From IMG/VR virus record IMGVR_UViG_3300012979_000002, positions 56,527-120,526 of that record: a DNA stretch of 64,000 bases; one strand, 5' to 3'. Positions 41,137 through 58,881 of this stretch are shown one piece after another. Below the pieces are notes generated by a model, which made no database searches, was not told the DNA's origin, and saw nothing but the letters and a program-made list of their open reading frames with translations. The position numbers were made by a program, and so were the translations under genes. Numbering within the stretch: position 1 is the stretch's first letter; the number at the start of each line of letters is the position of its first letter. The stretch is from a virus. Its lineage: Duplodnaviria; Caudoviricetes.

Positions 41137-42009
41137 CTAGAATAATAAGTCAGCGCCTGCTGTTTTATTTGCTGCTGCTGTCATTTGAGCTCTTGCTTTA
41201 TATTTCTCAGTGATGTCATTGTTTTGAGCAACAATTAAACTTTGTAAGTCTTTTAAAGCATATCCGCTCTCTGCTCCGTCTTCTGCTGGAGTACCTGCTG
41301 TAATTTTTAATAAACGAACTGTATTTGTATAAGTTTGTTTAATAGGTTCTCCGAATCCTAGTTCTTTTTCTACTACTCTTTCGTGTTGTTCATAAATGAT
41401 TTGACCACATAAAGTAACTAGGTCTCCAGGTCCATAGTTTGTGTTAATATAATTTACAGCCTCAGGGTCATCAAATCTTAAAGTTAATTCATTTACTTTA
41501 TTACCATACCCTACATTTAATAATTTTAAATCGTAACTGTCTGTGCTATTACCTTCTCTATCAACAACCTCTTTAATTGAAGCAATAACTCCTTGCACTT
41601 CGAAACTGTTTTGGTTTATAGCATCGCTTGCTGCAGCTTTAATAAAAGATGCACCAATTCTCCAATTACTAACTACTTTGTTGTCTCTTTCAGAGTAAAA
41701 ACTATTATCTTCAATACGAGCATTGCTAATAGCTACTTTAGGTGCTTTTTGAATACCTACAGTTCTAGCTGATTGTAATTCCACTACTTTAATTAATCTT
41801 TCGTATAAAGTGTTTTTCTCTCCTGTGTTTTTTAATTCATATGCAAACACTGATACAGGGATAACATAGTCGTTATCTGTCATAACTTCTAATTCTCCTG
41901 ATAAGTATTTACGACCATTCTTGTCTACTTTATTTTCTAATGTGTTATCCATTAGAGTCCCTTGAATGGTTACTTTGTTTAACATTTGTTTTAATTCTAC
42001 TTTTGCCAT
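41137..42009 (-). CDS. Single-stranded DNA-binding protein (tandem OB-fold type)
   Basis: N.V.I.G.L OB start, second F.V.G.I repeat, C-terminal DLLF; next to the Sak4-like gene. Confidence 0.65.
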   Translation of the reverse strand: MAKVELKQMLNKVTIQGTLMDNTLENKVDKNGRKYLSGELEVMTDNDYVIPVSVFAYELKNTGEKNTLYERLIKVVELQSARTVGIQKAPKVAISNARIEDNSFYSERDNKVVSNWRIGASFIKAAASDAINQNSFEVQGVIASIKEVVDREGNSTDSYDLKLLNVGYGNKVNELTLRFDDPEAVNYINTNYGPGDLVTLCGQIIYEQHERVVEKELGFGEPIKQTYTNTVRLLKITAGTPAEDGAESGYALKDLQSLIVAQNNDITEKYKARAQMTAAANKTAGADLLF

Positions 42010-42046
42010 ATGTCCTCCTTAATTGAATTACGAATTAATTGTATCA

Positions 42047-42298
42047 TTATTTTTCGTCTTTGTCAATACTATTTTTCATTTCTGTTAAAGTTTGTTCTTC
42101 CCCGTCCGGTGTTAGTCTAAGTTTGGTGCTCTCAGCGAAAGCATCTAAGTCTACAAAACCTACACGTCCGTGTTGATGAAACAATCCAAAATTCATATTT
42201 CGTAATGTTTCAGAACCATCTATTAAAGAACTTACGTCCGCGACTAGTTGTCTTACGGCATCCATATGGTCAGCGGTATATTGAGCTTCTTTTTCCAT
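42047..42298 (-). CDS. Hypothetical protein
   Basis: AAGGAGG RBS; promoter upstream. Confidence 0.7.
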   Translation of the reverse strand: MEKEAQYTADHMDAVRQLVADVSSLIDGSETLRNMNFGLFHQHGRVGFVDLDAFAESTKLRLTPDGEEQTLTEMKNSIDKDEK

Positions 42299-42435
42299 AG
42301 TTATATGTCCTCCTTGATTTAATTACATTCATAGTATAACATAGTTTTATAGTTTTGTAAATAGTCTGTGAAAATTTCTTTTGAAAAATTAAAAAAAATT
42401 AAAAGTGAAAAGTCCAAAATAAACACCAAAAAATA

Positions 42436-42510
42436 TAGCGTATTTCGCTGAAAAATATTTTTTAATATAATTATATTATAAACACCATTTGAGCAAAATA
42501 CGCTAGTTAA
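42436..42510. repeat. Dispersed palindromic element, copy 3 (fully symmetric)
   Basis: TAGCGTA-N20-TAATATAATTATATTA-N20-TACGCTA. Confidence 0.75.
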
Positions 42511-42541
42511 TTTTGTTTAAAAGGTTTACCACTTTATACCC

Positions 42542-42569
42542 AAAAAAAGAGATGTCTTACTGACATCTC
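42542..42569 (-). terminator. Rho-independent terminator of the Ubl transcript
   Basis: GAGATGTC-agtaa-GACATCTC-T7. Confidence 0.8.
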
Positions 42570-42804
42570 CCTAAACTATAAAAAGAATGGAGCGACGACA
42601 AGATAATTTATTAAATATATCTTGTCCCCAAACTAATCCTCCTCAATCTACCAAGATTTTTTATATGTCCTTCTGAAGTCAGTATAAAATGTATTATTAT
42701 AAAAATTGTACGCTCCAAAAGTTCATATAGTTATTTGAACTTATCTTAAAGGGAAGGAGAAGAATTAACTTCTCCTTTATATATTTAAGAGTAAGTTGTA
42801 AGGA

Positions 42805-43026
42805 TTAGTTACCTTTAATCATTTTAGCAACTGTGATGTTTTCGCCTTGTCTTGGTACATATGTTGCTTCTCTAGCAACTCCACCAACTGTGATTTGGTA
42901 TCCGTTGATGCTTTCTCCGTTGAATGCTGCTGCGAATAATTCAGCAACTGTTTCAGTTCCGTGACTGATAACTGGGTTAGCTCCTCCTGGTACTTTTGTA
43001 ATAACTAATGAATAAACTGTTTCCAT
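42805..43026 (-). CDS. Ubiquitin-like (beta-grasp) protein
   Basis: 73 aa with beta-grasp pattern (TVAEL, ITV.G, GE.ITV) and C-terminal KGN; next to E1 and JAB. Confidence 0.8.
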   Translation of the reverse strand: METVYSLVITKVPGGANPVISHGTETVAELFAAAFNGESINGYQITVGGVAREATYVPRQGENITVAKMIKGN

Positions 43027-43085
43027 ATGAAAATTTTCCTCTCTTTCTTAATTTTTTTAATCAATAATTTTTTATTGACAATATA

Positions 43086-43117
43086 ATTATATTATAATTT
43101 ATTGCCATTTGTGAAGT
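43086..43117 (-). promoter_or_regulatory. Promoter of the Ubl gene
   Basis: TTCACA-18-TATAAT with shared ACTnnnCARAWGG motif. Confidence 0.6.
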
Positions 43118-43146
43118 TTTTTTTTGAAAGTTTTTACTCAAAATTT

Positions 43147-43884
43147 TTAGAATAAATCATCTTGAGCAACCGGAACTTCTTCTTCTATTACTTCACTTAC
43201 TTCAAAACTTTCTTCGTATTTATTATAATAATGGTCAAATATGGTTTTGAAATAATAAGTTCCAACACGGTCCATAACTAAGTCAATGAATTGAACTATC
43301 ATTAATGAAGCCGTTTGTAATACTACTGGTAGAACTGTGATTGATGTTCCACATGCTGATACTTCTGCATTGTCGTCATCATAGAAGTCTACTTCGTATT
43401 TACTAAAATCTTTGACACTCATATCAAGTGAATAAACTCTTGCTTGGTCAGAACCTAATCTGCTTTCCCAACAATGTAAAATGTTTTTATTTTCTTTAGC
43501 TGCCATCCAAAGTTCTTTACGAACTTTCATACTGTCAACTAATAAAAATACATAACCTGCCATTTCGTCAATACCTTTGTGCTCATCATCATGAACTGGT
43601 AACACAGCACCAGTATTAACATTTACGACTATGTTAGGATTAATTGCTTTTATCTTTTCCGCTAAAGCTTCTGCTTTTAGTTTTCCCAAGTCTTCAGTGT
43701 CATAGTACTGATTTGGGATGTTGTGAATTTCAACATCATCAAAGTCATATATATTTAACACCGGACAACCCATTCTTGCTAACATCATAGCTACGAATGA
43801 ACCTGTAGCACCCACTCCTATAATATGAATTGGATGCTTAACATTGTCTGGTGAAAATATTTCAATGTGTCTGGATAAATCCAT
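43147..43884 (-). CDS. ThiF/E1-like activating enzyme
   Basis: IIGVGATGS, DFDDVE.HN..NQ, GK.K, LVDS...R, ESRLG, candidate catalytic Cys in SACG. Confidence 0.92.
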   Translation of the reverse strand: MDLSRHIEIFSPDNVKHPIHIIGVGATGSFVAMMLARMGCPVLNIYDFDDVEIHNIPNQYYDTEDLGKLKAEALAEKIKAINPNIVVNVNTGAVLPVHDDEHKGIDEMAGYVFLLVDSMKVRKELWMAAKENKNILHCWESRLGSDQARVYSLDMSVKDFSKYEVDFYDDDNAEVSACGTSITVLPVVLQTASLMIVQFIDLVMDRVGTYYFKTIFDHYYNKYEESFEVSEVIEEEVPVAQDDLF

Positions 43885-43936
43885 TTCGTATTCTCCTTTC
43901 CTTTTTTCTTTTGTAATTTTTTTTAATTACAAATAA

Positions 43937-44073
43937 ATTATAATATTTTTTAGTGCCTTTTGAAAAGTATTTTTTTCATTTTTTTCTAAAAAATATTTTG
44001 GTCATTTAAAAGTTTTTCTTTTTCTTTTAAATTACAATAATATTATAATATATTTTTTGACCTTCTGTATAGT
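43937..44073 (-). promoter_or_regulatory. Tandem promoters upstream of E1
   Basis: Two -35/TATAAT pairs, each with CARAAGG. Confidence 0.55.
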
Positions 44074-44095
44074 TTTTATCCATTACAGAAGACCG

Positions 44096-44152
44096 TATTT
44101 TATAATATTATATCCGTCTCGCGATACGGGACAGATATAATACTACAAAATA
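44096..44152 (-). other. 23-bp RNA hairpin between JAB and E1
   Basis: Fully paired on the minus strand with three G-U wobbles. Confidence 0.65.
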
Positions 44153-44213
44153 AGTAGTATTACAGCCAGCAGTGCTAGCCAAATTATAAAGCCCACATTA
44201 GGAGGAGTGCGTA

Positions 44214-44930
44214 TTAAGCTACTCCTAATATGTCTTGCCAGTAGTTTGGGTCGTTTAAGATTGTATCAAAATCAGACACGTACCTAACCTCTATGTCTTC
44301 TAACATGGGCTTTGTGTCGTTTTTTTTGTTTTTCCCTCTATTACTATATACGGTTCTACTAGGACTAGTTACTGGTGTTGAAGTCTTTGCTGGAGTATAA
44401 GCCTTCTTGCTTACTTTGTCCTTAATCTCTGCCTCAATTTGTGCCTTAAGCTCATTGATACGAGGATTGTAAACTTGTAAGTCTGCTTGGTCCATATGTA
44501 TTTTAATACCGTGCTCATAATCAAAGATGTCAATGTGGTATTCTCTTTTCTTGTTTGTAATTAAACGAATAAACCAAGGGTTACCATCTTTAAAGTATTC
44601 CATTTGAGAGTCGTCTTGTCCTGATGGAGTTGGACTCATGTTAACATGAGAGTGTCCCCAACATTTAATTTTAACTTGTTCCTCAACTGGAGTTTCATTC
44701 CAAAATTCTATTAAAGCCATTGGGTCAATTTCGGTTGTAGTTCCATTAACCTCTTGCTTTAATAAAACGCAGTCAGTAATTAGGTAACCAGTATTGCCAA
44801 CTTTCTCTACGAAAGCTAGCCAACCAATCTCACCATCTGACAAATCACAATACATTTCCATCTTAGCTTTTGCTTCAGCCTTGATGTATAAGTCATATCT
44901 ATTATCTAAAAACGCAACTGTTTTAGCCAT
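44214..44930 (-). CDS. JAB/JAMM metallopeptidase (deubiquitinase-like)
   Basis: EIGWL...WGHSHVNMSPTPSGQD = E...HxH-x7-S-x2-D. Confidence 0.9.
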   Translation of the reverse strand: MAKTVAFLDNRYDLYIKAEAKAKMEMYCDLSDGEIGWLAFVEKVGNTGYLITDCVLLKQEVNGTTTEIDPMALIEFWNETPVEEQVKIKCWGHSHVNMSPTPSGQDDSQMEYFKDGNPWFIRLITNKKREYHIDIFDYEHGIKIHMDQADLQVYNPRINELKAQIEAEIKDKVSKKAYTPAKTSTPVTSPSRTVYSNRGKNKKNDTKPMLEDIEVRYVSDFDTILNDPNYWQDILGVA

Positions 44931-46245
44931 TGCTGTTCGCTCCTTTCATTATTTCTTCGTATAGTGCTGGGTCTTTTTCTTCCAATACCTTTAAGAAAGT
45001 ATCGTCTTTACCATTATACGACCCAGTATTTGATGAAGTATAATTGGTGTTTAAATCACGGAATGAGATGTTATTCTCTCTTTTCCATTGTAAGAACTGT
45101 GGAATAGACATGCGTCTAATACTTTCGTCTTCTCTGCGATTTGCCACAAAATCTTTTAATATATCTAGGGCGGCACAATATACCATTTCCCCTGCATCAT
45201 TATAAATTGGATACCACCATACTTTTCTTCCTGCGTAGTCTCTTATGTTTGCAGTAGTTAGATACTGTTTCAAACACATAAAGAAGTACTCTAAACCATG
45301 TTCGGCTGTGTGAGCTATAACATCGTTCATTTCCCCTCCACAGAAGTGATTCTTTCCAAAGTGTGGATAGCCTATAGTACTCCAGTTATTTACTGAAAAC
45401 ATATCATCAAAACTATTGTCTAGAGTTTCAATGAACTCTGGTTTGAAATCTGGTCTAATTCTAATACGAGTAGCCACCATTCCAAAATGACCACCTGAAT
45501 AAATATGTTTTGCTGTTTCATATAAATACTTGTTGTTACGGAAGTCATCCTCTGGTATGAATTTCCCCATAGGTTCTGATGTATAAATAGCCATAGGCTT
45601 TAAAGTTAAAATTATACAATCTCCCTCAAGCTCTGCTGTTTGTATCATATTTAGATACTCTAGGTCTTTTAGGGTAATTTTTCTACTACATACTTTTCTT
45701 TCCTTAGACAATGCTTTAATGCTTTCATTAATAACTTTTAATTCGGCTGGTATCGCCTTATAACGATTAGCAAACTGTTTGTATTCGTCTAACTTGTCAA
45801 GATGACTAATTAAACTCTTGTCATCAAAAGCTAGAGCATCATATACAGTATTGCTTAATTTATATTCTCTACTATCATCTTTGTCATTAAACTTAATAAC
45901 CTTGTATTTGATTGTAGGAATTGCCATCCTTAAGTCATCTAAGAATAATCTAAGTTCTAACTTAAATGATGACTGCTCTATTGTCTTATCATAGCCAGGT
46001 AGAGCAGTTAGTATCCATATGTCGGTTATTCTTTCCTGTTTAATGAAAGTAATATAATCGTGCAGTCTAGTAGAAGCATCGTTTCTAAATGGTCTTTTAG
46101 GGCTTTTGTTGTGATTAAGGTCTAACCCTAATACTGTTTGCCCGTGTTGTTTAAAACACCCCATCATATAAACAATGTAGCTTTTCATACGACTGTCTTG
46201 ATTACTAGTGATTAAGTAGTTATCTCCTATCTTTAATTTTATCAC
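44923..46245 (-). CDS. Putative E2-like (UBC-fold) protein with N-terminal domain and coiled coil
   Basis: YPHF.....CGG followed by helical segment ending QYL...N, typical of prokaryotic E2 PH-x-C; stop overlaps the JAB start. Confidence 0.6.
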   Translation of the reverse strand: MIKLKIGDNYLITSNQDSRMKSYIVYMMGCFKQHGQTVLGLDLNHNKSPKRPFRNDASTRLHDYITFIKQERITDIWILTALPGYDKTIEQSSFKLELRLFLDDLRMAIPTIKYKVIKFNDKDDSREYKLSNTVYDALAFDDKSLISHLDKLDEYKQFANRYKAIPAELKVINESIKALSKERKVCSRKITLKDLEYLNMIQTAELEGDCIILTLKPMAIYTSEPMGKFIPEDDFRNNKYLYETAKHIYSGGHFGMVATRIRIRPDFKPEFIETLDNSFDDMFSVNNWSTIGYPHFGKNHFCGGEMNDVIAHTAEHGLEYFFMCLKQYLTTANIRDYAGRKVWWYPIYNDAGEMVYCAALDILKDFVANRREDESIRRMSIPQFLQWKRENNISFRDLNTNYTSSNTGSYNGKDDTFLKVLEEKDPALYEEIMKGANSNG

Positions 46246-47983
46246 GGATTACCTCTCCTTTCATGTCCCCATAGTTAAAAGTAATACGATTAGTTTTAGC
46301 ATCATAATACTTTCTTAATGGGTATTCTCCGATAAGAACCAATTCGTTTTTGTCTTTACGACATTGAACTGTGGCCATAACTCTCACCATAGCCTTAGTT
46401 TCTTGAATTGGATTAATTCTTTGATTATTTATTGAATTAATTATAACATTTTGAGGCTCCACGTGTAAAGTTTTATAATAATTATTTTTAGTTTTTTTAT
46501 CCATTTCAACTTGAGGAATTGCCATACACTTAGAAAAGTCAAAGTGATTTACATAAGAAGCTAAGCCTTTATATTCTTCCTCTAGTCTAGCCTTCATTCT
46601 CTCATATGATTGTACAACCTGAGCATCCATGTTAGCTGTGGCTTTAGTACAAAACTTAAACCAAGTTGATAATATATCATCGTCTCCTTCAGGAGTTATA
46701 TTATTTTGTAAAAAGTCAGGATACTGTTGAAGAACTTCTCTTAGGTGAGCTACATAATCATCGGTATAAACTTGACCAACTTGTGCGTCAATTAAACGAC
46801 TAACCCACTCTAAAGCTCTAAGTTGTATCTTATCTTCATTAACTGGTATAATTAAATCTAGATAATATGTAGTGCCTGGTGAGTGAACATTTAATGGGAA
46901 TGCCATTTTTCTTTGTTTACCCTTATGACTTACTAAACAACTTATTTGTCCTTCCATACGAGTTCCGCCATTACTCATTCCAAGATGACCTGTAGAATAT
47001 AAAATCTTATCCTTTCTTATAAAATGTAAAATAACCTTATTTAATTCTAAAATTAAGTTATTACTATATACCGTAAAGAATAAATCTTTATTGTTGGCGA
47101 ATTGACACAATACAATTAAACGAGCATTTACTTTTTCTTGCCAGTATTTAATGTAAGGTGCAGACTCTTCAAAGCAAGTATTGCCGTCATATACAACAAT
47201 TGAGCGACCAATACGAGCTACTCTTACCCTATTCTTATACATTAGCCTAAAATAAAACTCTCCTTGACGGCCTGCTACAAATTGTGATGCTAAGAATGGA
47301 GGAAAAACATTATCAACTGTAGAAGCCCCTAATAAATTAACACTAGGACCATCTAATGCTGATACTATATCATCAAACCATTCTAAATTCATTTTTACTA
47401 ATGAACCTCTGTGATACACTTTATCGTTTCTTACACCAACTCTTACTGCTATATTATTTTCTACATTATAAAAACGAATTAATTTCTCTAGTGTTAAATT
47501 ACTAGAACCTAATATAAGCTGGTCTCCTTTTAAGTCCAAATTAACATTTCCAATTTGAATAACAACATCGTCAGGCATACCTGGTCCTAACCATGCTCCT
47601 CTAATAGCACTAGCTCCTCTTAATATATTCTTTAAGCTAGCTAAGAAACCTCCGTTGCGATTAAAAGTCATACCTTCTAAATCTAGAACCATTTGATAAT
47701 ACATATGGTTAGTTGCATTGTATTCTATTTCTTGAGTTTTGCTATATACGATTGGTTGAGTTTTTAATTTATCTATATGAGATAAAACTTCTGCTGCTGG
47801 TCTTAATCCCTGTGTAGCGTGTCTTTCTTCATAAGTATTCTTAATTAAATCTAAACCTAAGTTCTTAATTTGTTCCATAGTACCAGGTCTAGTAGTAATT
47901 ATTCTTAATACTAGCTGGTGTAATAATGGTGTATTGTAAGTGTATTCGCTAAAGTGATTTATTGATACTTTTACTTCTTTCAT
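46220..47983 (-). CDS. Large hypothetical protein coupled to the E2-like gene
   Basis: 587 aa; AGGAG RBS; 26-nt overlap with the next gene. Confidence 0.75.
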   Translation of the reverse strand: MKEVKVSINHFSEYTYNTPLLHQLVLRIITTRPGTMEQIKNLGLDLIKNTYEERHATQGLRPAAEVLSHIDKLKTQPIVYSKTQEIEYNATNHMYYQMVLDLEGMTFNRNGGFLASLKNILRGASAIRGAWLGPGMPDDVVIQIGNVNLDLKGDQLILGSSNLTLEKLIRFYNVENNIAVRVGVRNDKVYHRGSLVKMNLEWFDDIVSALDGPSVNLLGASTVDNVFPPFLASQFVAGRQGEFYFRLMYKNRVRVARIGRSIVVYDGNTCFEESAPYIKYWQEKVNARLIVLCQFANNKDLFFTVYSNNLILELNKVILHFIRKDKILYSTGHLGMSNGGTRMEGQISCLVSHKGKQRKMAFPLNVHSPGTTYYLDLIIPVNEDKIQLRALEWVSRLIDAQVGQVYTDDYVAHLREVLQQYPDFLQNNITPEGDDDILSTWFKFCTKATANMDAQVVQSYERMKARLEEEYKGLASYVNHFDFSKCMAIPQVEMDKKTKNNYYKTLHVEPQNVIINSINNQRINPIQETKAMVRVMATVQCRKDKNELVLIGEYPLRKYYDAKTNRITFNYGDMKGEVIRDKIKDRR

Positions 47984-47998
47984 ATTTTCACTCTCCTA

Positions 47999-48271
47999 TT
48001 ATCTTCTGCTTAAGTATCTAACCAAATGATAATCACTAATGATTGTCTTTTCTGGTGATAAGTAAGTTTTCTTTTTCATTTTTGGGTGGTTAAATTCTCT
48101 ATTACATCTTTTTCTTTTTGTGGTTAATTTCTGAACCACTATGTTATCTTCTTCATCAAAATCTACTATGATAGCCGGTCTTACTTTTTCCATGTTGCCC
48201 GGTGTTGCATAAGGGAAATGGACTAGCCATATATCCCCTACACATGGTTCTCTAGTAGTTCTTGTGGTCAT
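47999..48271 (-). CDS. PemK/MazF-like endoribonuclease
   Basis: VGDIWLVHFPY.......K.RPAIIV...V..LTTK. Confidence 0.75.
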   Translation of the reverse strand: MTTRTTREPCVGDIWLVHFPYATPGNMEKVRPAIIVDFDEEDNIVVQKLTTKRKRCNREFNHPKMKKKTYLSPEKTIISDYHLVRYLSRR

Positions 48272-48659
48272 ATAAGTATATCTTCTCTTCATTTTCATCT
48301 ATCTCCCATATTCCAGTATTTGGGTGTTGTTTTAATTCCCCAAACGCCTTAGCCAATACTTCATCTATTCCTTGATTTAACATTCCTACAGGTAAAGCCT
48401 TGGCATATTTTTCTAAATCGTCTATTAAATATAATCCATACACTCCTTTGTTGTGCAAGATTACTAGACGATGTCCTACATCGTATGGTTGTATAATGAA
48501 CATCCAAGTATTAAATAAGGTATCTAAGTAAGTACCGTATGTGTTTTCTGGATGGTTCTTAACATTCCATACAACTGAATGTGGTGTAAGTGGTTGTGCA
48601 GATTTTGACGATAGTAGTTTTTTAGTTATATACTTATTAAATCTTAGGTTGGGTGTCAT
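48252..48659 (-). CDS. Hypothetical protein
   Basis: TAATG coupling. Confidence 0.7.
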   Translation of the reverse strand: MTPNLRFNKYITKKLLSSKSAQPLTPHSVVWNVKNHPENTYGTYLDTLFNTWMFIIQPYDVGHRLVILHNKGVYGLYLIDDLEKYAKALPVGMLNQGIDEVLAKAFGELKQHPNTGIWEIDENEEKIYLYDHKNY

Positions 48660-49240
48660 TAGTGAATACCCACTATCCATTCTTTCCTACGATTTTTAAC
48701 CACTTCACTTAAATCTATTTCTTTGTCATCCACGGTAACCTTTTGTATTGAGAATAATTTACTTAAGGTTTGGATGTTGTTTATATGTTCATTACCACAA
48801 ATGGATGTGTGCATAGGTGTTTGACCATACACTGGCATCTCATCATATTCTATTTTCTTTGCTTCATCAAGTTTTAATAAAACTCCTTTTTCAAATGGTG
48901 TTAACATATGTTGCACTAAATCATAAGCCGCCATCTCATTTTCAGGAGCATTACACATTCTTTTTAACACATTGTTATATGCTTTTGTGCTTTTAAAGAA
49001 TATAAAACCACTAAATTCCTCTCTCAAAGCCATAATTGGAAGATTATTATATATTTCTTTGTTAGAAATAGCTTTGTCATTATGGTCTTCCAACTGAACG
49101 ATGAAATAATGAATGGCAATTTTCTTCACAAACTTGATAGCAAGTTTTGGATACTTAGTCGTCAGTTTAACTGTGAAGTCTTTATATGACCCCGCGTGTA
49201 TTAAAACTGTATGACTGATAAAGGCTGGAACTTTTGCCAT
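48659..49240 (-). CDS. Hypothetical protein
   Basis: Downstream of a TTGAAA-18-TATAAT promoter. Confidence 0.7.
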   Translation of the reverse strand: MAKVPAFISHTVLIHAGSYKDFTVKLTTKYPKLAIKFVKKIAIHYFIVQLEDHNDKAISNKEIYNNLPIMALREEFSGFIFFKSTKAYNNVLKRMCNAPENEMAAYDLVQHMLTPFEKGVLLKLDEAKKIEYDEMPVYGQTPMHTSICGNEHINNIQTLSKLFSIQKVTVDDKEIDLSEVVKNRRKEWIVGIH

Positions 49241-49288
49241 CTTATCACTCTCTTTCTTTTTTTATTTACATTATAATTATAATATATT

Positions 49289-49906
49289 TTAGTGGCGTCT
49301 TTCAAGTTTTTTTTCACCTAAAATAGCAATTTTAAACTTGTACATGTCTAGCCCTAAAATGGCATCTATACAATACACTTCACCATTGTCGCGATTTACT
49401 ATGTCTATTTCACTTTCTTCTTGAAATAGAAAGCGTGTATGCTCGTCTAAGTTAAGTTGGTATGTATTATTTGTAATACTTTCTCTGTGCAATAGCTGCA
49501 GGTCCTCTTTGTTATTTAATCTAGTCCCGGTATTAAACAAAGTCCAGTATCTTTCCTTCACACTTAACATATCATAAAAGAAATATACGCCCCTAGTTTT
49601 ATCTTTATACAAATCTAACAAAGCATCTCTAAAGTCTGCTTCCTTTTCTATAAAGATAAATTGGCTGTCTTCTTGGTGCATGGCTAAAAACGAGAAGTTG
49701 TCCAATACAAATTTACAGATTTCCTCTTTGGTTTTTTGATAGTCCATAACTGTCAACATTACAAAATGAAAGTCAGCGTCCAATTTAGGTTCAGTAACTT
49801 TGTAGTGAGCTGTAATTTCAGTGAACTGAGTAAAGCGCTTTTGCTCCATTAGAAAATAGGGGTATAGTTCTTCATCAAAAAATAAAGTAAAAACACTATA
49901 TCCCAT
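49289..49906 (-). CDS. Hypothetical protein
   Basis: TAATG coupling. Confidence 0.7.
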   Translation of the reverse strand: MGYSVFTLFFDEELYPYFLMEQKRFTQFTEITAHYKVTEPKLDADFHFVMLTVMDYQKTKEEICKFVLDNFSFLAMHQEDSQFIFIEKEADFRDALLDLYKDKTRGVYFFYDMLSVKERYWTLFNTGTRLNNKEDLQLLHRESITNNTYQLNLDEHTRFLFQEESEIDIVNRDNGEVYCIDAILGLDMYKFKIAILGEKKLERRH

Positions 49907-50649
49907 TAGATATATCCTCTCGCTTTGTACCAAGCTGTCATAGTATCATACTCATCATCATAAGCATCATCATCGTCCCAGGGATTGCTGCTATTAGGAT
50001 TACAATTAGTAAGAGCTAAACTCATTTGTTCAGGTTTCTTTATTGGAACATCCTCATCCTCTTCCACCCCGTCTAAGTCAGGGTCTAATATTACTACGAA
50101 AAAGCCACAATCCTCTATTAATACAGGCCACCATAGAGTTTCTCCACGGTTCCCTTTATATGATACCATATTTACATCATTAGAAAATAGCACATCTATG
50201 TTGCCAGACAATGACATCATAGGTTGTTCTTTCTCTATGTTATAACTAATGTCCTCTGGTTTGATGACTACTTTGTATTCTTCGTAGTAGTGCTTTAATA
50301 ATACGCTTAGCTTTTCTATCTCAGTAAGCATATCACCAATAAAACATTGACCAGCGCTTGACCAGCAATATATATCACTAATTTCTTCTAATGTGTCGGG
50401 TGTAAGTAAAACACCGTTTGTATATTCTTCGTGTACAGCTAAGGCACCTGTAACATCCATTACATCCTCAGCAGTTAATGCGTCAGCTGACAAAGCAACC
50501 GACTCAATTTCCGCAATGCTATACTCAGGGTCGAATAAGCAAGGGAAAGATTTAATTATAATAAATTCATCGCATTGCCACTTTTCCAAGTCTTTTGTTG
50601 GAAGAAAAATGACATAGCGTACATCTAAGTATTCTAATTCTTTGGGCAT
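49906..50649 (-). CDS. Acidic hypothetical protein
   Basis: AGGGGAG RBS before MPKEL; promoter upstream. Confidence 0.7.
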   Translation of the reverse strand: MPKELEYLDVRYVIFLPTKDLEKWQCDEFIIIKSFPCLFDPEYSIAEIESVALSADALTAEDVMDVTGALAVHEEYTNGVLLTPDTLEEISDIYCWSSAGQCFIGDMLTEIEKLSVLLKHYYEEYKVVIKPEDISYNIEKEQPMMSLSGNIDVLFSNDVNMVSYKGNRGETLWWPVLIEDCGFFVVILDPDLDGVEEDEDVPIKKPEQMSLALTNCNPNSSNPWDDDDAYDDEYDTMTAWYKARGYI

Positions 50650-50748
50650 ATTAACTCCCCTTTCTTTATTTATTACAATAATATTATATCTAATTTTGCT
50701 GTCTTTTGACAACTTTTTAAAATAAAAAAGAGCATTAAAAACGCTCTT

Positions 50749-51389
50749 TTATTCTACATAAACATTATAGGTATAGACTTCATATTTTCCATCACTAACA
50801 AACAGGTCAATTATTTTATTAGTCATACATGCCCCGCAGCTATCTAGGATAATTCCCGGATAGGTTTCGCCATTGATGGTGATGTTAACTTTGTCGTAAT
50901 AATTGTAGTATTTTATATATCCTAGCCTTTCGTTGTATTTAGCACAACCTCCTGACTTGGATTTTAAACAGGCATTCGTAGCTCCTGCTAACACTACTCG
51001 TCCTTGGTACTCGTACCAACCTTTACTATTGATTTGAAAATCTTTCTCGCAAAGCCCGGTACCTGTACATGAACCTGTATTACAATTATCTCCAGACCAG
51101 AAGCTGGTTAACTTATAGCCCGAGTTTAGTTTTTTTTTAAGTCTTTTATTTGGCTCTCTAATGATGTAATAGTTTTTTGCTGTTCTGCTACTTTGTTGGT
51201 TTGAATTACCAACTCTGCTGCCAAAGCTTCATACTCCGTTTGCAGATTTTCTTTATCTACAAGACAGATTGCTTCCCTTTCTTTATATAGATTATTATGA
51301 GTCGCTAGTTTTCCAAACAACACATAGTTCAAACTTAAGGAACATACTAAGACGATACCTAAGAATGTTCTAATCATTTGTTTTTTCAT
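50749..51389 (-). CDS. Membrane-anchored coiled-coil + 3D-domain protein, split by a -1 frameshift at A_AAA_AAC
   Basis: ORF1 (51126-51389) is TM + coiled coil; the -1 frame continues YKLTSFW...ILDSCGAC...IIDLFV. Confidence 0.65.
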
Positions 51390-51612
51390 TTTTAACTATT
51401 TCTCCTATTTGGTGTATCATATCTTCCAACACCTTTTTATCTTCCTCGCTTATATCCTTTGGAATATAACGAGATAGTTTGCGTATCTTCCCTGTCATAC
51501 ATAGGTCAGCCATTTTTTCTAACTTACCTAGACTAGGTTTTTTATTTTTTGGGTACGCTCCCAATTCCATCAACTTATCGCAATACTTTTGTATGGCTAG
51601 TAATAAGTCCAT
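51370..51612 (-). CDS. Hypothetical protein
   Basis: GAGGTG RBS. Confidence 0.7.
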   Translation of the reverse strand: MDLLLAIQKYCDKLMELGAYPKNKKPSLGKLEKMADLCMTGKIRKLSRYIPKDISEEDKKVLEDMIHQIGEIVKNEKTND

Positions 51613-51706
51613 ATAACACCTCTTTCATTTTTATATTTTATTTTAAAATATAATTAAGCGTTTTAAGGTGGTTTAAATACCTCTATTTGCTTCGTAATAA
51701 TTATTC

Positions 51707-51754
51707 TAATATATTTATATTAAAAAACCAAATTATCGCTCTACGCTAGCTTAA
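51707..51754. repeat. Dispersed palindromic element, copy 4
   Basis: TAATATATTTATATTA with TACGCTAG arm at 51742. Confidence 0.6.
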
Positions 51755-51769
51755 AATGCTTTAAAAAAT

Positions 51770-51801
51770 AAAAAGAAAAAAGAGGTACTAAACAGTACCT
51801 C
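51770..51801 (-). terminator. Rho-independent terminator
   Basis: GAGGTACT-gttt-AGTACCTC followed by a T tract. Confidence 0.8.
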
Positions 51802-51804
51802 AAT

Positions 51805-52069
51805 TCCCCAGGTCCCTGTAAAGAATAACCGTTAGCCAGTCATCTAACATACAGTCGTTAATGATGAAGTCGCCATACCGTTCTGGGTCATCACTCCCAT
51901 AGCGATACAACTGGGCTATATATCAGTGTATAGACTGGGTGAATAAATATATAGAAACACAAGGAAACAACAGCACAAGAAATGCTTTAAAAAATATTGT
52001 TCCTTGAATTGAAAGCAGTAAAAGGAAAGGTAAGTGAGAAATACTGCCCTCAATTCAGGGAATAATATT
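51805..52069 (-). ncRNA. Putative structured RNA(s) downstream of the 384-aa gene
   Basis: 28-bp hairpin at 51993-52069 plus a CCCAG/CTGGG-closed GC-richer domain before the terminator. Confidence 0.4.
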
Positions 52070-52082
52070 CCCTTACCCTTGA

Positions 52083-53237
52083 CTACTTATCTGCGTTGAC
52101 TTTTTTAGTTTCTTTTTTCTTTGGTGCGAATGGATTAGTTCCTCCGTTAAACATAGATAGCATAGCGATAGTTGATAAACTGTCGTTATCTTTATCTCCT
52201 TTTAACATCATAGCTAATGCCATTGGGTTAGACCCTAAGTCACCATTGCTTAATGAACTAAATAACATCATTTGAGTTAAGTCGCTATTCTTGCCTTCCA
52301 TTAAAGCCATTAACATCATTGGGTTGCTGAATAAGTCTCCAGCTGATGCGAAGTTATCTCCAAACATAGAGAATACTTTTTGGAAGTATTTAATACCGAA
52401 CATAGTAGATTTTGGTATTAACACAGTTTGAGTGCAAGTTTCATAATCTACTGCTTTAATTTCATTAGTAGTATCTACGATGAAATAAGGTTTACCTTCG
52501 TGTAAAACAGTGTCTCCTACATTTACCTCTACTGCTGGTAATAAGAATAATGCGTCTTTAATGTCAAATAGCATGTTGGTTACATCTACGAATTCGTTAT
52601 TGTCTTTGTTATATACAACAAATTTACCGTTGTTTTGACTAACAGCGATACCATTCATAGATAATTTGAAGCGGTCGCTTCTAATTTTTCCGAAACCTAA
52701 GTTTCCAAATAAATTATCCATAGATTTACTTTCCTCTCTTTCGTCAGTACACATTGTGCATACTTCTTCTTTTCTTAAATCTTCTAAATATGCTAAACCT
52801 TTTTCAGTTAGAACATAATAGTCGTCGTCCTCATCATCATAATCTCTATCGCATAAGTCGCTATAAAGACTATCAATTTGAACTAAACGGTCATCTTCGT
52901 GTAGTTCTATAACTCCTACACTTACTACAAACAATTTATTGTGTGTAGCACATACATAACCTTGCTTGATGTTATATAATTCTAAGTCTGATTGGTTCAG
53001 AAATAAAGGAGTATATGATGTTGCAGGTATTGTCCCAGTATCTCTAAGTTGTTTAATGATTGGTTCAACAGCATACACATCTTCTAAGATGTTTGATACT
53101 TGACCTATAGGCATATCATCTTTAGCACATATAAGACCGGCTACTAAATCCACTTTGTCGTGAAAATATACTTGCCCATCAAATATGTCGTTTCTTTCAA
53201 TGACTACATAAGCATCTCTTAATATTTTTTCTGACAT
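52083..53237 (-). CDS. Hypothetical phage protein with NPM-rich C-terminus
   Basis: Own promoter and RBS; LSMNGIAV, NPMMLMALM repeats. Confidence 0.8.
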   Translation of the reverse strand: MSEKILRDAYVVIERNDIFDGQVYFHDKVDLVAGLICAKDDMPIGQVSNILEDVYAVEPIIKQLRDTGTIPATSYTPLFLNQSDLELYNIKQGYVCATHNKLFVVSVGVIELHEDDRLVQIDSLYSDLCDRDYDDEDDDYYVLTEKGLAYLEDLRKEEVCTMCTDEREESKSMDNLFGNLGFGKIRSDRFKLSMNGIAVSQNNGKFVVYNKDNNEFVDVTNMLFDIKDALFLLPAVEVNVGDTVLHEGKPYFIVDTTNEIKAVDYETCTQTVLIPKSTMFGIKYFQKVFSMFGDNFASAGDLFSNPMMLMALMEGKNSDLTQMMLFSSLSNGDLGSNPMALAMMLKGDKDNDSLSTIAMLSMFNGGTNPFAPKKKETKKVNADK

Positions 53238-56397: not shown

Positions 56398-56588
56398 AAT
56401 GGGCAGGATTTAAACCCGCCCCATGCGAGAAAAAATGAAACTTATAGGTCAGGGTTCCCGGGCCGCCTGTTCCGGGATACGACACATCGGCTCAATAGCC
56501 AGAAGAAATTATCCGTCTAACTAACAATCTTACGATTGGCCTACCCTTAAGCAGCATTGCTGCCGGCACTGGAAGCGGACTTTCCTAG
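56398..56588 (-). ncRNA. Putative structured RNA ending in a T-arm mimic
   Basis: Hairpins GCAGC/GCTGC, CAATC-GTAA-GATTG, CCCGG/CCGGG and GGGCGGG-TTTAAAT-CCTGCCC. Confidence 0.5.
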
Positions 56589-58483: not shown

Positions 58484-58881
58484 TGGTGGAGATGACGAGA
58501 GTCGAACTCGTGTCCAAAAACTTCTCCATATTATTACTTTCTTACAAGTTTAGTCTAGGTCGTTCTATCTTAATCCCCTACTACCTATACAATCTTGGGG
58601 TTAAGCTTTGCTTGAAGTAGTTCAATAGATACATCAGCAAAGAAATGTATTCTATTGTCTGTCCTTGAAGAGTAGAACCTTCTATGTTTTTGCTGACAGC
58701 TTACTGCTACTCGCATAGAAGTGTTGCTTAGGCGTATACTACGCTATTAAAAGAGAATAAAGATTTAACTTTATTAGCAACTCTTGAAAAAATGTTTCCA
58801 TTTATTTGTTTGTTTGGATAAGGCTCCCGCCACTTGTTTCATAATACTTTGATGCTCCTGTCGAAACCAGAATACATCCCC
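58484..58881 (-). ncRNA. ssrA: tmRNA
   Basis: 5' GGGGATGTATTCTGGTTTCGAC; 3' GAGTTCGACTCTCGTCATCTCCACCA; tag ORF at 58799-58728. Confidence 0.92.

Follow-up and report, generated by a model that had tools for sequence, protein, structure and literature searches.

A candidate ubiquitin-like protein-conjugation pathway encoded beside the replication genes of uncultured phages

A stretch of 64,000 nucleotides from a tailed phage (Caudoviricetes; IMG/VR record IMGVR_UViG_3300012979_000002, positions 56,527 to 120,526; hereafter the window) was analysed for a cluster of five genes that a first-pass annotation had read as a ubiquitin-like (Ubl) conjugation system. The genes encode a Ubl tag precursor, an E1-type activating enzyme, a JAB/JAMM metallopeptidase, an E2-like protein of 440 amino acids (aa) and a 587-aa protein. 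Judged by sequence, predicted structure and analogy with characterised bacterial systems, they quite probably provide a working protein-conjugation pathway owned by the phage, belonging to a family not previously described.

The window is part of a complete gut-phage genome of 120,526 bp with direct terminal repeats, which carries 28 tRNA genes and a tmRNA (the latter at window about 58484-58881, minus strand, with tRNA arrays elsewhere in the genome). Its close relatives are uncultured phages of 110-130 kb. As annotated, the five open reading frames are co-oriented neighbours on the minus strand and bear the motifs assigned to them (Table 1); their order is 587-E2-JAB-E1-Ubl, immediately upstream of SSB-like (YorF), AAA, helicase and primase genes. 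The 587-aa and E2-like genes overlap by 26 nt and the E2-like and JAB genes by 8 nt, with the GTG start of the E2-like gene preceded by a strong Shine-Dalgarno sequence. E1 and Ubl are set off by 329 bp and 120 bp, respectively, each with a promoter-like site of its own, and tight coupling is therefore limited to the 587-aa, E2-like and JAB genes, the three for which it had been proposed. The site ahead of E1 coincides with invariant columns in an alignment of eight intergenic regions; the total of promoter-like sites in the region equals the shuffled expectation, and for the site at the Ubl gene only its position is informative.

No close relative with sufficient flanking DNA departs from this gene order. 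Of the relatives fetched via the neighbouring AAA gene, five had sufficient DNA, and each of these carries as much of the module as its contig covers; the module thus behaves as a core gene set. With its order constant in close relatives and its catalytic residues invariant, the five-gene arrangement lies far beyond chance. Identity to the relatives falls along the locus, from 82-93% for Ubl and 79-95% for E1 to 63-76% for JAB, 44-59% for E2 and 22-33% for the 587-aa protein, whose gene evolves fastest of the five.

Table 1. Module genes and associated features, in window coordinates.
Feature	Position	Strand	Remarks
Ubl tag precursor, 73 aa	42805..43026	-	ends K71-G72-N73; predicted mature end Gly72
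E1 (ThiF/MoeB fold), 245 aa	43147..43884	-	GxGxxG at 23-28, S-A-C178-G
JAB/JAMM metallopeptidase, 238 aa	44214..44930	-	E34, H93-x-H95, S103, D106
E2-like protein, 440 aa	44923..46245	-	Y-P-H295-x6-C302
587-aa protein, no fold match	46220..47983	-	specific to one subclade; candidate E2 partner/target adaptor
Sigma-70/sigma-A-like promoter site directly upstream of Ubl gene	43086..43115	-	11/12 match
Promoter-like site upstream of E1	43937..43966	-	10/12 match; second copy 44042-44071; conserved in relatives
Structured non-coding element just 3' of Ubl gene	42538..42723	-	two exclusive folds, intrinsic terminator; conserved

The tag and its enzymes

A Pfam search with the window Ubl alone gave no significant family match. 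Among the Ubl family members, 14 of 30 match Pfam ThiS (best E 6e-7), and the family profile matches SAMP2 structures (E 0.005-0.06); on these profile matches the tag is classed as a ThiS/SAMP2-like beta-grasp protein, in keeping with the first-pass description of a beta-grasp-like protein ending K-G-N. Across the family alignment of 30 relatives Gly72 is invariant, and K71 and N73 are nearly so. In 75 of 76 distinct Ubls the motif [KR]-G is followed by N or A and then by 0 to over 200 further residues, while a free C-terminal Gly occurs in none (0/76). The Ubls of close relatives end K-G-N, K-G-N-L or K-G-N-V-A at genuine TAA stops, one distant relative has a 52-residue tail, and at least seven relatives encode two to three head-to-tail Ubl units, each ending in [KR]-G before N or A, in the manner of polyubiquitin precursors. 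An unchanging Gly followed by a dispensable tail is what one expects of a precursor requiring cleavage, which implies trimming of the Ubl by JAB; the proposed removal of the residue after Gly72 thus fits at the level of sequence. For BilA, the tag of a bacterial system, such cutting was shown (10.1101/2023.09.26.559546).

The E1 matches Pfam ThiF above the cut-off (E 1.2e-23). R5, the GxGxxG motif, K70, D117 and the catalytic C178 are invariant in its family, and S-x-C-G is present in 82 of 87 members. A CxxC motif is lacking in 84 of 86 family E1s. The window enzyme, a minimal, stand-alone E1 with no Zn site, is predicted to act as a homodimer. JAB matches Pfam Prok-JAB below the cut-off (E 1.7e-4). 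Its JAMM motif is complete, as had been claimed, with all five residues (Table 1) invariant down to 39% identity, and the protein is predicted to serve as both tag maturase and de-conjugase.

The 440-aa protein was modelled with AlphaFold2 using 98 homologues, with a predicted local distance difference test score (pLDDT) of 92. The model comprises an alpha/beta N-domain (7-129), a coiled coil (145-180), a UBC/RWD-like domain (187-348) and a helical C-terminal part. The UBC/RWD-like domain is a beta-meander with flanking helices and contains H295 and C302. In VIA-align, about half of the best 50 rows cover residues 187-348 with E2 enzymes or RWD-type domains; 15 of these name an E2 or Atg10, and the remainder we take to be mostly kinetochore or FANCL RWD-type domains. 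Z-scores against many E2s and RWD domains are 4.6-6.1, for example 5.7 for UBE2E1 (3bzh_A, root-mean-square deviation (rmsd) 4.0, 110 residues aligned) and 4.9 for human UBE2W (8a58_A, rmsd 3.1, 95 aligned). A viral structure library returned two uncharacterised phage proteins as the only matches of the model.

His295, which sits seven residues before the Cys, and Cys302 are invariant in 98 sequences and down to 15% identity. An iterated profile ties the E2-like domain to the JAB-adjacent gene in nearly every distant locus, with the motif P-H-x(5-9)-C-x-G, and the family profile aligns its own His and Cys with the active-site motif of UBE2W, a His-Pro-His-type motif before the catalytic Cys, at E 0.4-0.5, which makes it a mechanistic hint only. 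UBE2W modifies N-terminal amines. Taken singly, none of these lines of evidence is strong, but in combination the fold, the motif and the gene context make the 440-aa protein likely E2-like, and the earlier reading of its YPH-x6-C motif as that of an E2 gains a predicted UBC/RWD-like domain of modest Z and an invariant Cys302.

The length of E2-like proteins varies between 132 and 1690 aa, with the catalytic domain in common. Giant forms of 1149-1690 aa occur on phage contigs of 117-180 kb (L051:1801-6873, L096:3597-7514, L092:9643-13092), and their extra domains may reveal targets. Two E2-like genes per locus were seen in L055, L060, L095 and L070/L093; the second copy in L060 is without the catalytic motif, like an inactive E2 variant.

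Distribution and relation to known systems

The JAB profile retrieved 80 viral loci, equivalent to 59 clusters at 90% identity. E1 was found in 58 of these clusters, the E2-like protein in 58, Ubl in 55, and all three within 7 kb in 53, counts that are inflated because some of the tallied loci went into the E2 and Ubl profiles. The 80 loci show 18 gene arrangements, and since co-occurrence holds across them, the linkage of Ubl, E1, JAB and E2 survives shuffling; the co-occurrence across phages for which the first-pass annotation had called is thus observed for the four-gene core.

Among 185,579 species genomes only 16 contigs match. One of them carries the cassette of the window on a contig of phage-genome size, and a second has phage-like genes around its copy. 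Several Saccharibacteria/Kaiserbacteria copies are surrounded by cellular genes; one of these copies, on a contig of 1.2 Mb, is close to what we take, from our reading of the sequence, to be an rpoB-like gene. The module lies among cellular genes in contigs of bacterial metagenome-assembled genomes, mostly Patescibacteria (L128, L132, L133, L135, L137, L139); some of these copies have poly-Ubl precursors, and L132, L133 and L137 have a regulator-like gene upstream. In the E1 tree the cellular copies branch at two or more separate points amid the viral rows. The family is therefore mainly but not exclusively viral: the claim of a full phage-encoded pathway stands in that the set is complete in a phage genome and conserved, and has to be narrowed in that some Patescibacteria chromosomes carry the family too.

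A search of the GenBank phage collection found no cultured close member, giving one weak, unannotated JAB match. Full-text literature searches and a jumbo-phage review (PMC7824862), with subscription journals mostly uncovered, yielded no description of a phage-encoded Ubl-E1-E2-JAB system. A DNA-pattern match, L170, lies in an unrelated contig and was taken as chance. Sequencing runs containing the DNA, with shares up to 0.34, are animal gut, manure or viral metagenomes, and no RNA run is listed among the matches.

The closest mechanistic parallel is Bil, in which E1 and E2 conjugate the JAB-trimmed Ubl to lysines without an E3, and whose type II was assigned to 6C (CEHH/6C) (10.1101/2023.09.26.559546). 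As in Bil, Ubl, E2, JAB and E1 are four separate genes, here in the order Ubl-E2-JAB-E1 in 13 of the 80 related loci; the Ubl is capped for trimming by JAB, as judged here from sequence; Cys residues are present on both E1 and E2; and there is no E3. Unlike the Bil E1, which has an IAD-AAD-CYS architecture with structural Zn, the phage E1 is a single ThiF domain of 245 aa, and whereas the Bil E2 has its His after the Cys (C138/H151), the phage E2 has it seven residues before and carries extra domains. The tag differs in being ThiS/SAMP2-like with a K-G/N end, and Bil is a host defence while the present genes are a core set of a phage. With neither a multidomain E1 nor a downstream-His E2, the phage module is, on its sequence features, not a Bil.

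The PRTRC cassette (TIGR03734-03742), which from its description appears to be operon type 6d of Iyer, Burroughs and Aravind 2006 (PMC1779556), likewise combines a small stand-alone Ubl with a conserved C-terminal Gly, an E1 of ThiF size, a JAB and an E2 with a conserved Cys on mobile DNA; as a lead only, Prok-E2_D occurs in 11-13% of members among ESM Atlas neighbours of the phage E2 domain. The phage E1, however, scores 27.1 bits against PRTRC ThiF TIGR03736 (cut-off 144.75). The phage Ubl, JAB and E2 matched no PRTRC family, PRTRC A/B/C gave no matches, Prok-E2_D was found in 0 of 23 genomes, and ParB (PF02195), linked in PRTRC/6d, had no match in the complete phage genome. The JAB-N domain of PRTRC/6d has no room in the phage JAB, whose catalytic Glu is residue 34, and the 6d E2 has its His downstream of the Cys, not upstream. 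PRTRC/6d also includes a further conserved, largely alpha-helical protein; the model of the 587-aa protein is beta-rich and gave no informative match.

Bub systems (6E/DUF6527; PMC11601596) resemble the phage family in that JAB cuts right after the Ubl Gly and multi-Ubl proteins occur. They form Tyr/Ser oxyesters and have fused genes and DUF6527, whereas the phage genes are separate, both Cys residues (C178, C302) are invariant, each tag unit is closed by a [KR]-G site of its own before N or A, and none of the five module genes matches DUF6527 in Pfam. Type II CBASS shares E1, E2 and JAB activities through Cap2/Cap3, but Cap2 is an E2-E1 fusion where the phage enzymes are separate genes, and its modifier is a CD-NTase instead of a dedicated Ubl; the E1-E2 models of PADLOC match only the N-terminal ThiF core of the phage E1. 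Lacking the fusions and residues that define Bub and CBASS, the phage module is neither of them at the level of sequence. RVT_1, searched for as a sign of retron coupling, had no match in the phage genome. New here are the E2 architecture of this clade, the 587-aa partner candidate and the RNA element downstream of the Ubl gene.

The 587-aa protein and flanking elements

The 587-aa protein is subclade-specific and not part of the conserved core: it was found in 11 of 59 phage clusters (2 of 38 at 60% identity), and its homologues share 17-41% identity with W441-F442-C445 invariant. The AlphaFold2 model (pLDDT 80) is beta-rich. VIA and Foldseek gave no informative match, the VIA list being filled by the coiled coil with the other domains barely probed, and these searches and Pfam showed no known E3 (RING/HECT/RBR) fold or motif. 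ESM Atlas had no usable match, and a protein database search, evidently insensitive as it missed known homologues, returned two only. In the sister subclade a gene of 395-430 aa without detectable homology fills the same slot upstream of E2, and in both proteins a P-x-P motif comes after a coiled coil close to the C-terminus. Homology between the two (E 0.26) and a reading of the 587-aa protein as an inactive E2 paralogue (HHalign against E2 profiles, E 0.25-0.31) were considered and found unsupported.

A complex of the 587-aa protein with E2 residues 1-405 was predicted with a score of 0.57 against 0.00 for the best control, at least 60% of contacts agreeing between runs and partner pLDDT being 76 or more. 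Solved pairs attained the mark in 58 of 80 cases and mismatched pairs in 2 of 110; those that attained it with a score of 0.60 or less were only seven solved pairs and both mismatches, and the support for the complex is therefore weak. Taken together, there is about an even chance that the 587-aa protein binds E2, and it is improbable that it is a substrate without stable binding. For the suggestion that it acts as E3 or adaptor the support is weak, and the protein lies outside the conserved system. It could also be an unrelated early gene lying upstream of E2 by chance, which we consider somewhat less than evenly likely and which would concern this gene only. Its restricted distribution, the non-homologous gene in the sister subclade and the equal synteny of the flanking early genes would agree with a chance neighbour; its last residues overlap the ribosome-binding site and start of E2, and their conservation is therefore not independent evidence. 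The 26-nt overlap, the presence in both subclades of a large gene ending in coiled coil and P-x-P directly upstream of E2 and, weakly, the complex prediction speak for a connection. Directly upstream of the 587-aa gene lies a PemK/MazF-like gene (window 47999-48298, minus strand; Pfam E 1.5e-4, PHROG 1936 E 2e-6), conserved at 60-74% in the subclade and with no obvious antitoxin.

Between the Ubl gene and the replication genes lies the non-coding element of Table 1, of which 18 distinct copies were collected. Its 5' segment can form two mutually exclusive pairings, the 5' arm and loop of its terminator are complementary to an upstream hexamer, and it includes a Shine-Dalgarno-like stretch without a conserved open reading frame. 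The fold z-score is -5.1. In the long-range fold, double-sided changes occur at 8 of 15 pairs (0 of 500 shuffles as high), several of them coming from the two most divergent rows. The element is restricted to the subclade with the 587-aa protein and missing in the sister subclade, and insertion of an HNH-like gene behind the tag gene leaves its position unchanged. Rfam over 41900-52100 gave only chance miRNA matches and none for the element. It might, as a guess, be an attenuator between the Ubl module and the replication genes.

Insertions of HNH endonuclease genes, or remnants of such genes, recur right after the Ubl gene (L021:11371-12087, L124, L038-L040, L003). At 42436-42505 an AT-rich stretch is bracketed by an 8-bp inverted repeat; its AT-rich core is kept in both subclades, and it is a candidate replication origin or operator. 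In L005, L009, L015 and L017, in-frame TGA occurs at homologous positions in essential genes (SSB, helicase, 165-aa), and TGA is therefore read as sense in part of the clade; it ends just 1 of 110 long open reading frames of the window's genome. This usage hints at a Bacilli/Mollicutes-like host group.

Proposed pathway, alternatives and targets

In the proposed pathway, the tag would be made as a precursor from its own promoter, and JAB would cut after Gly72 to release Asn73 or, in relatives, longer tails or further tag units. The homodimeric E1 would adenylate Gly72 and form a thioester on Cys178, from which the tag would move to Cys302 of E2, where His295 may take the place of the Asn of the HPN motif. 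E2 would then hand the tag to an amine of a target protein without a RING/HECT E3, and JAB could undo the linkage. The choice of target is probably made by the variable parts, namely the N-terminal domains of E2 and, in its subclade, the 587-aa protein as a bound partner; catalytic chemistry is conserved while the recognition parts vary in E2 length and in the falling gene identities, which argues for a changing target. Both the chemistry, by analogy with Bil, and the nature of the target are what we infer from genes, motifs, conservation, predicted fold and co-occurrence. The complete pathway of the first-pass annotation is upheld by the UBC/RWD-like domain, the invariant Cys and the absence from the phage genome of the sulfur-acceptor genes searched for.

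Several observations weigh against a conjugation pathway of this kind. The support consists of sequence and predicted structure. The Z-scores of the E2 model lie below the tool's distinctive level, and RWD domains without activity reach scores as high as those of E2s. Foldseek of the model against the PDB returned nothing at E<=0.001, no Pfam E2 family was matched by the 440-aa protein or by E2-family members, and the UBE2W motif match is not significant. C302 is related to the catalytic Cys of E2s by profile alignment, and the recovery counts carry the inflation described above. The E1, annotated as having an intact nucleotide-binding motif and SACG, does have GxGxxG and C178, but its ATP site departs in part from the canonical form: Asn58 takes the position that in UBA5 belongs to the Arg of N-x-x-R. 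Asn stands at this position in 85 of 86 family members, and its strict conservation suggests a variant active site and not decay. The acceptor, finally, could be other than a protein.

Such a relay onto nucleic acid, lipid or a small metabolite, or an E2 that is another Cys/His acyl-transfer enzyme on a UBC-like scaffold, would suit a locus among replication genes in a phage rich in tRNAs and other RNAs, with a structured RNA adjoining the Ubl gene, a basic C-terminus on the 587-aa protein and an atypical E1 ATP site, and Atg8-type lipidation provides a precedent. It is nevertheless unlikely: Bil, the characterised bacterial Ubl-E1-E2-JAB set, yields lysine conjugates, and the sister subclade retains the entire module but lacks the RNA element. 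We give still less weight to a decoy, in which JAB would strip host tags and Ubl, E1 and E2 would soak up host Bil- or CBASS-type components without productive tagging. Host conjugation systems do act against phages (PMC11601596) and related cassettes exist in some bacterial chromosomes, but in each of the four proteins the catalytic centre is strictly conserved even among highly diverse phages, the K-G/N end is unlike the tags described for Bil and Bub, and a decoy would not need the full relay.

A sulfur-carrier pathway, in which a ThiS-like protein, its Gly unmasked by JAB, would be adenylated by ThiF and become a thiocarboxylate serving the thiolation of tRNA, a cofactor or DNA, deserves very little credence. 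Mec/CysO and QbsD/QbsE are sulfur-carrier systems in which a JAB unmasks the Gly, the tag is closest to ThiS/SAMP2, the E1 is ThiF-sized and the genome is rich in tRNA genes. Of the 44 module-bearing genomes, four have a full-length IscS/NifS-type (Aminotran_5) gene, each of them a sister-subclade genome (G006, G007, G008, G009; in G006 about 90 kb from the module). The annotation had found no ThiG, MoaE, cysteine synthase or rhodanese gene nearby, and this extends to the whole 120.5-kb genome, where, with positive controls, ThiG, MoaE, PALP/cysteine synthase, rhodanese, IscS-type and TtcA/TtuA-type (PF01171) genes were all absent, although a host could supply such partners. Rhodanese and PF01171 were found in 0 of the 44 genomes, the tag ends in a single Gly after Lys and not in Gly-Gly, and an E2-like Cys protein accompanies JAB in 58 of 59 clusters; it is the absence of partner families together with the near-constant E2-like protein that makes a sulfur carrier unlikely.

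If the module conjugates proteins, the favoured target, at about even chance, would be a host protein of defence or housekeeping, tagged early in infection; replication proteins of the phage itself are a possible but doubtful target, and a rival phage is unlikely, a division made by judgement. Takeover, counter-defence and exclusion of rival phages, the purposes named in the first-pass annotation, are conjectural. More specifically, and tentatively, a lytic-type phage clade may turn a core, early, ubiquitination-style pathway on its host, with E2 and the fast-evolving 587-aa protein as a two-part ligase that needs no E3 of the eukaryotic type and whose tagging of specific host proteins disables defence or redirects the cell. 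If so, the known direction of bacterial ubiquitination would be reversed.

Bacterial Ubl conjugation has so far been tested only as a host-encoded process (Bil, CBASS Cap2, Bub), shown or proposed to act against phages. The kind of system is thus already known; what is added is a family owned by phages. Its minimal E1, His-type E2 and polyubiquitin-like precursors bear on the evolution of ubiquitin systems, and as a four-gene system with named catalytic residues and cleavage site, open to reconstruction in E. coli, it makes a phage-side role of ubiquitination directly testable. Conserved and widespread in uncultured phages, the family suggests that phages run protein-tagging chemistry of their own.

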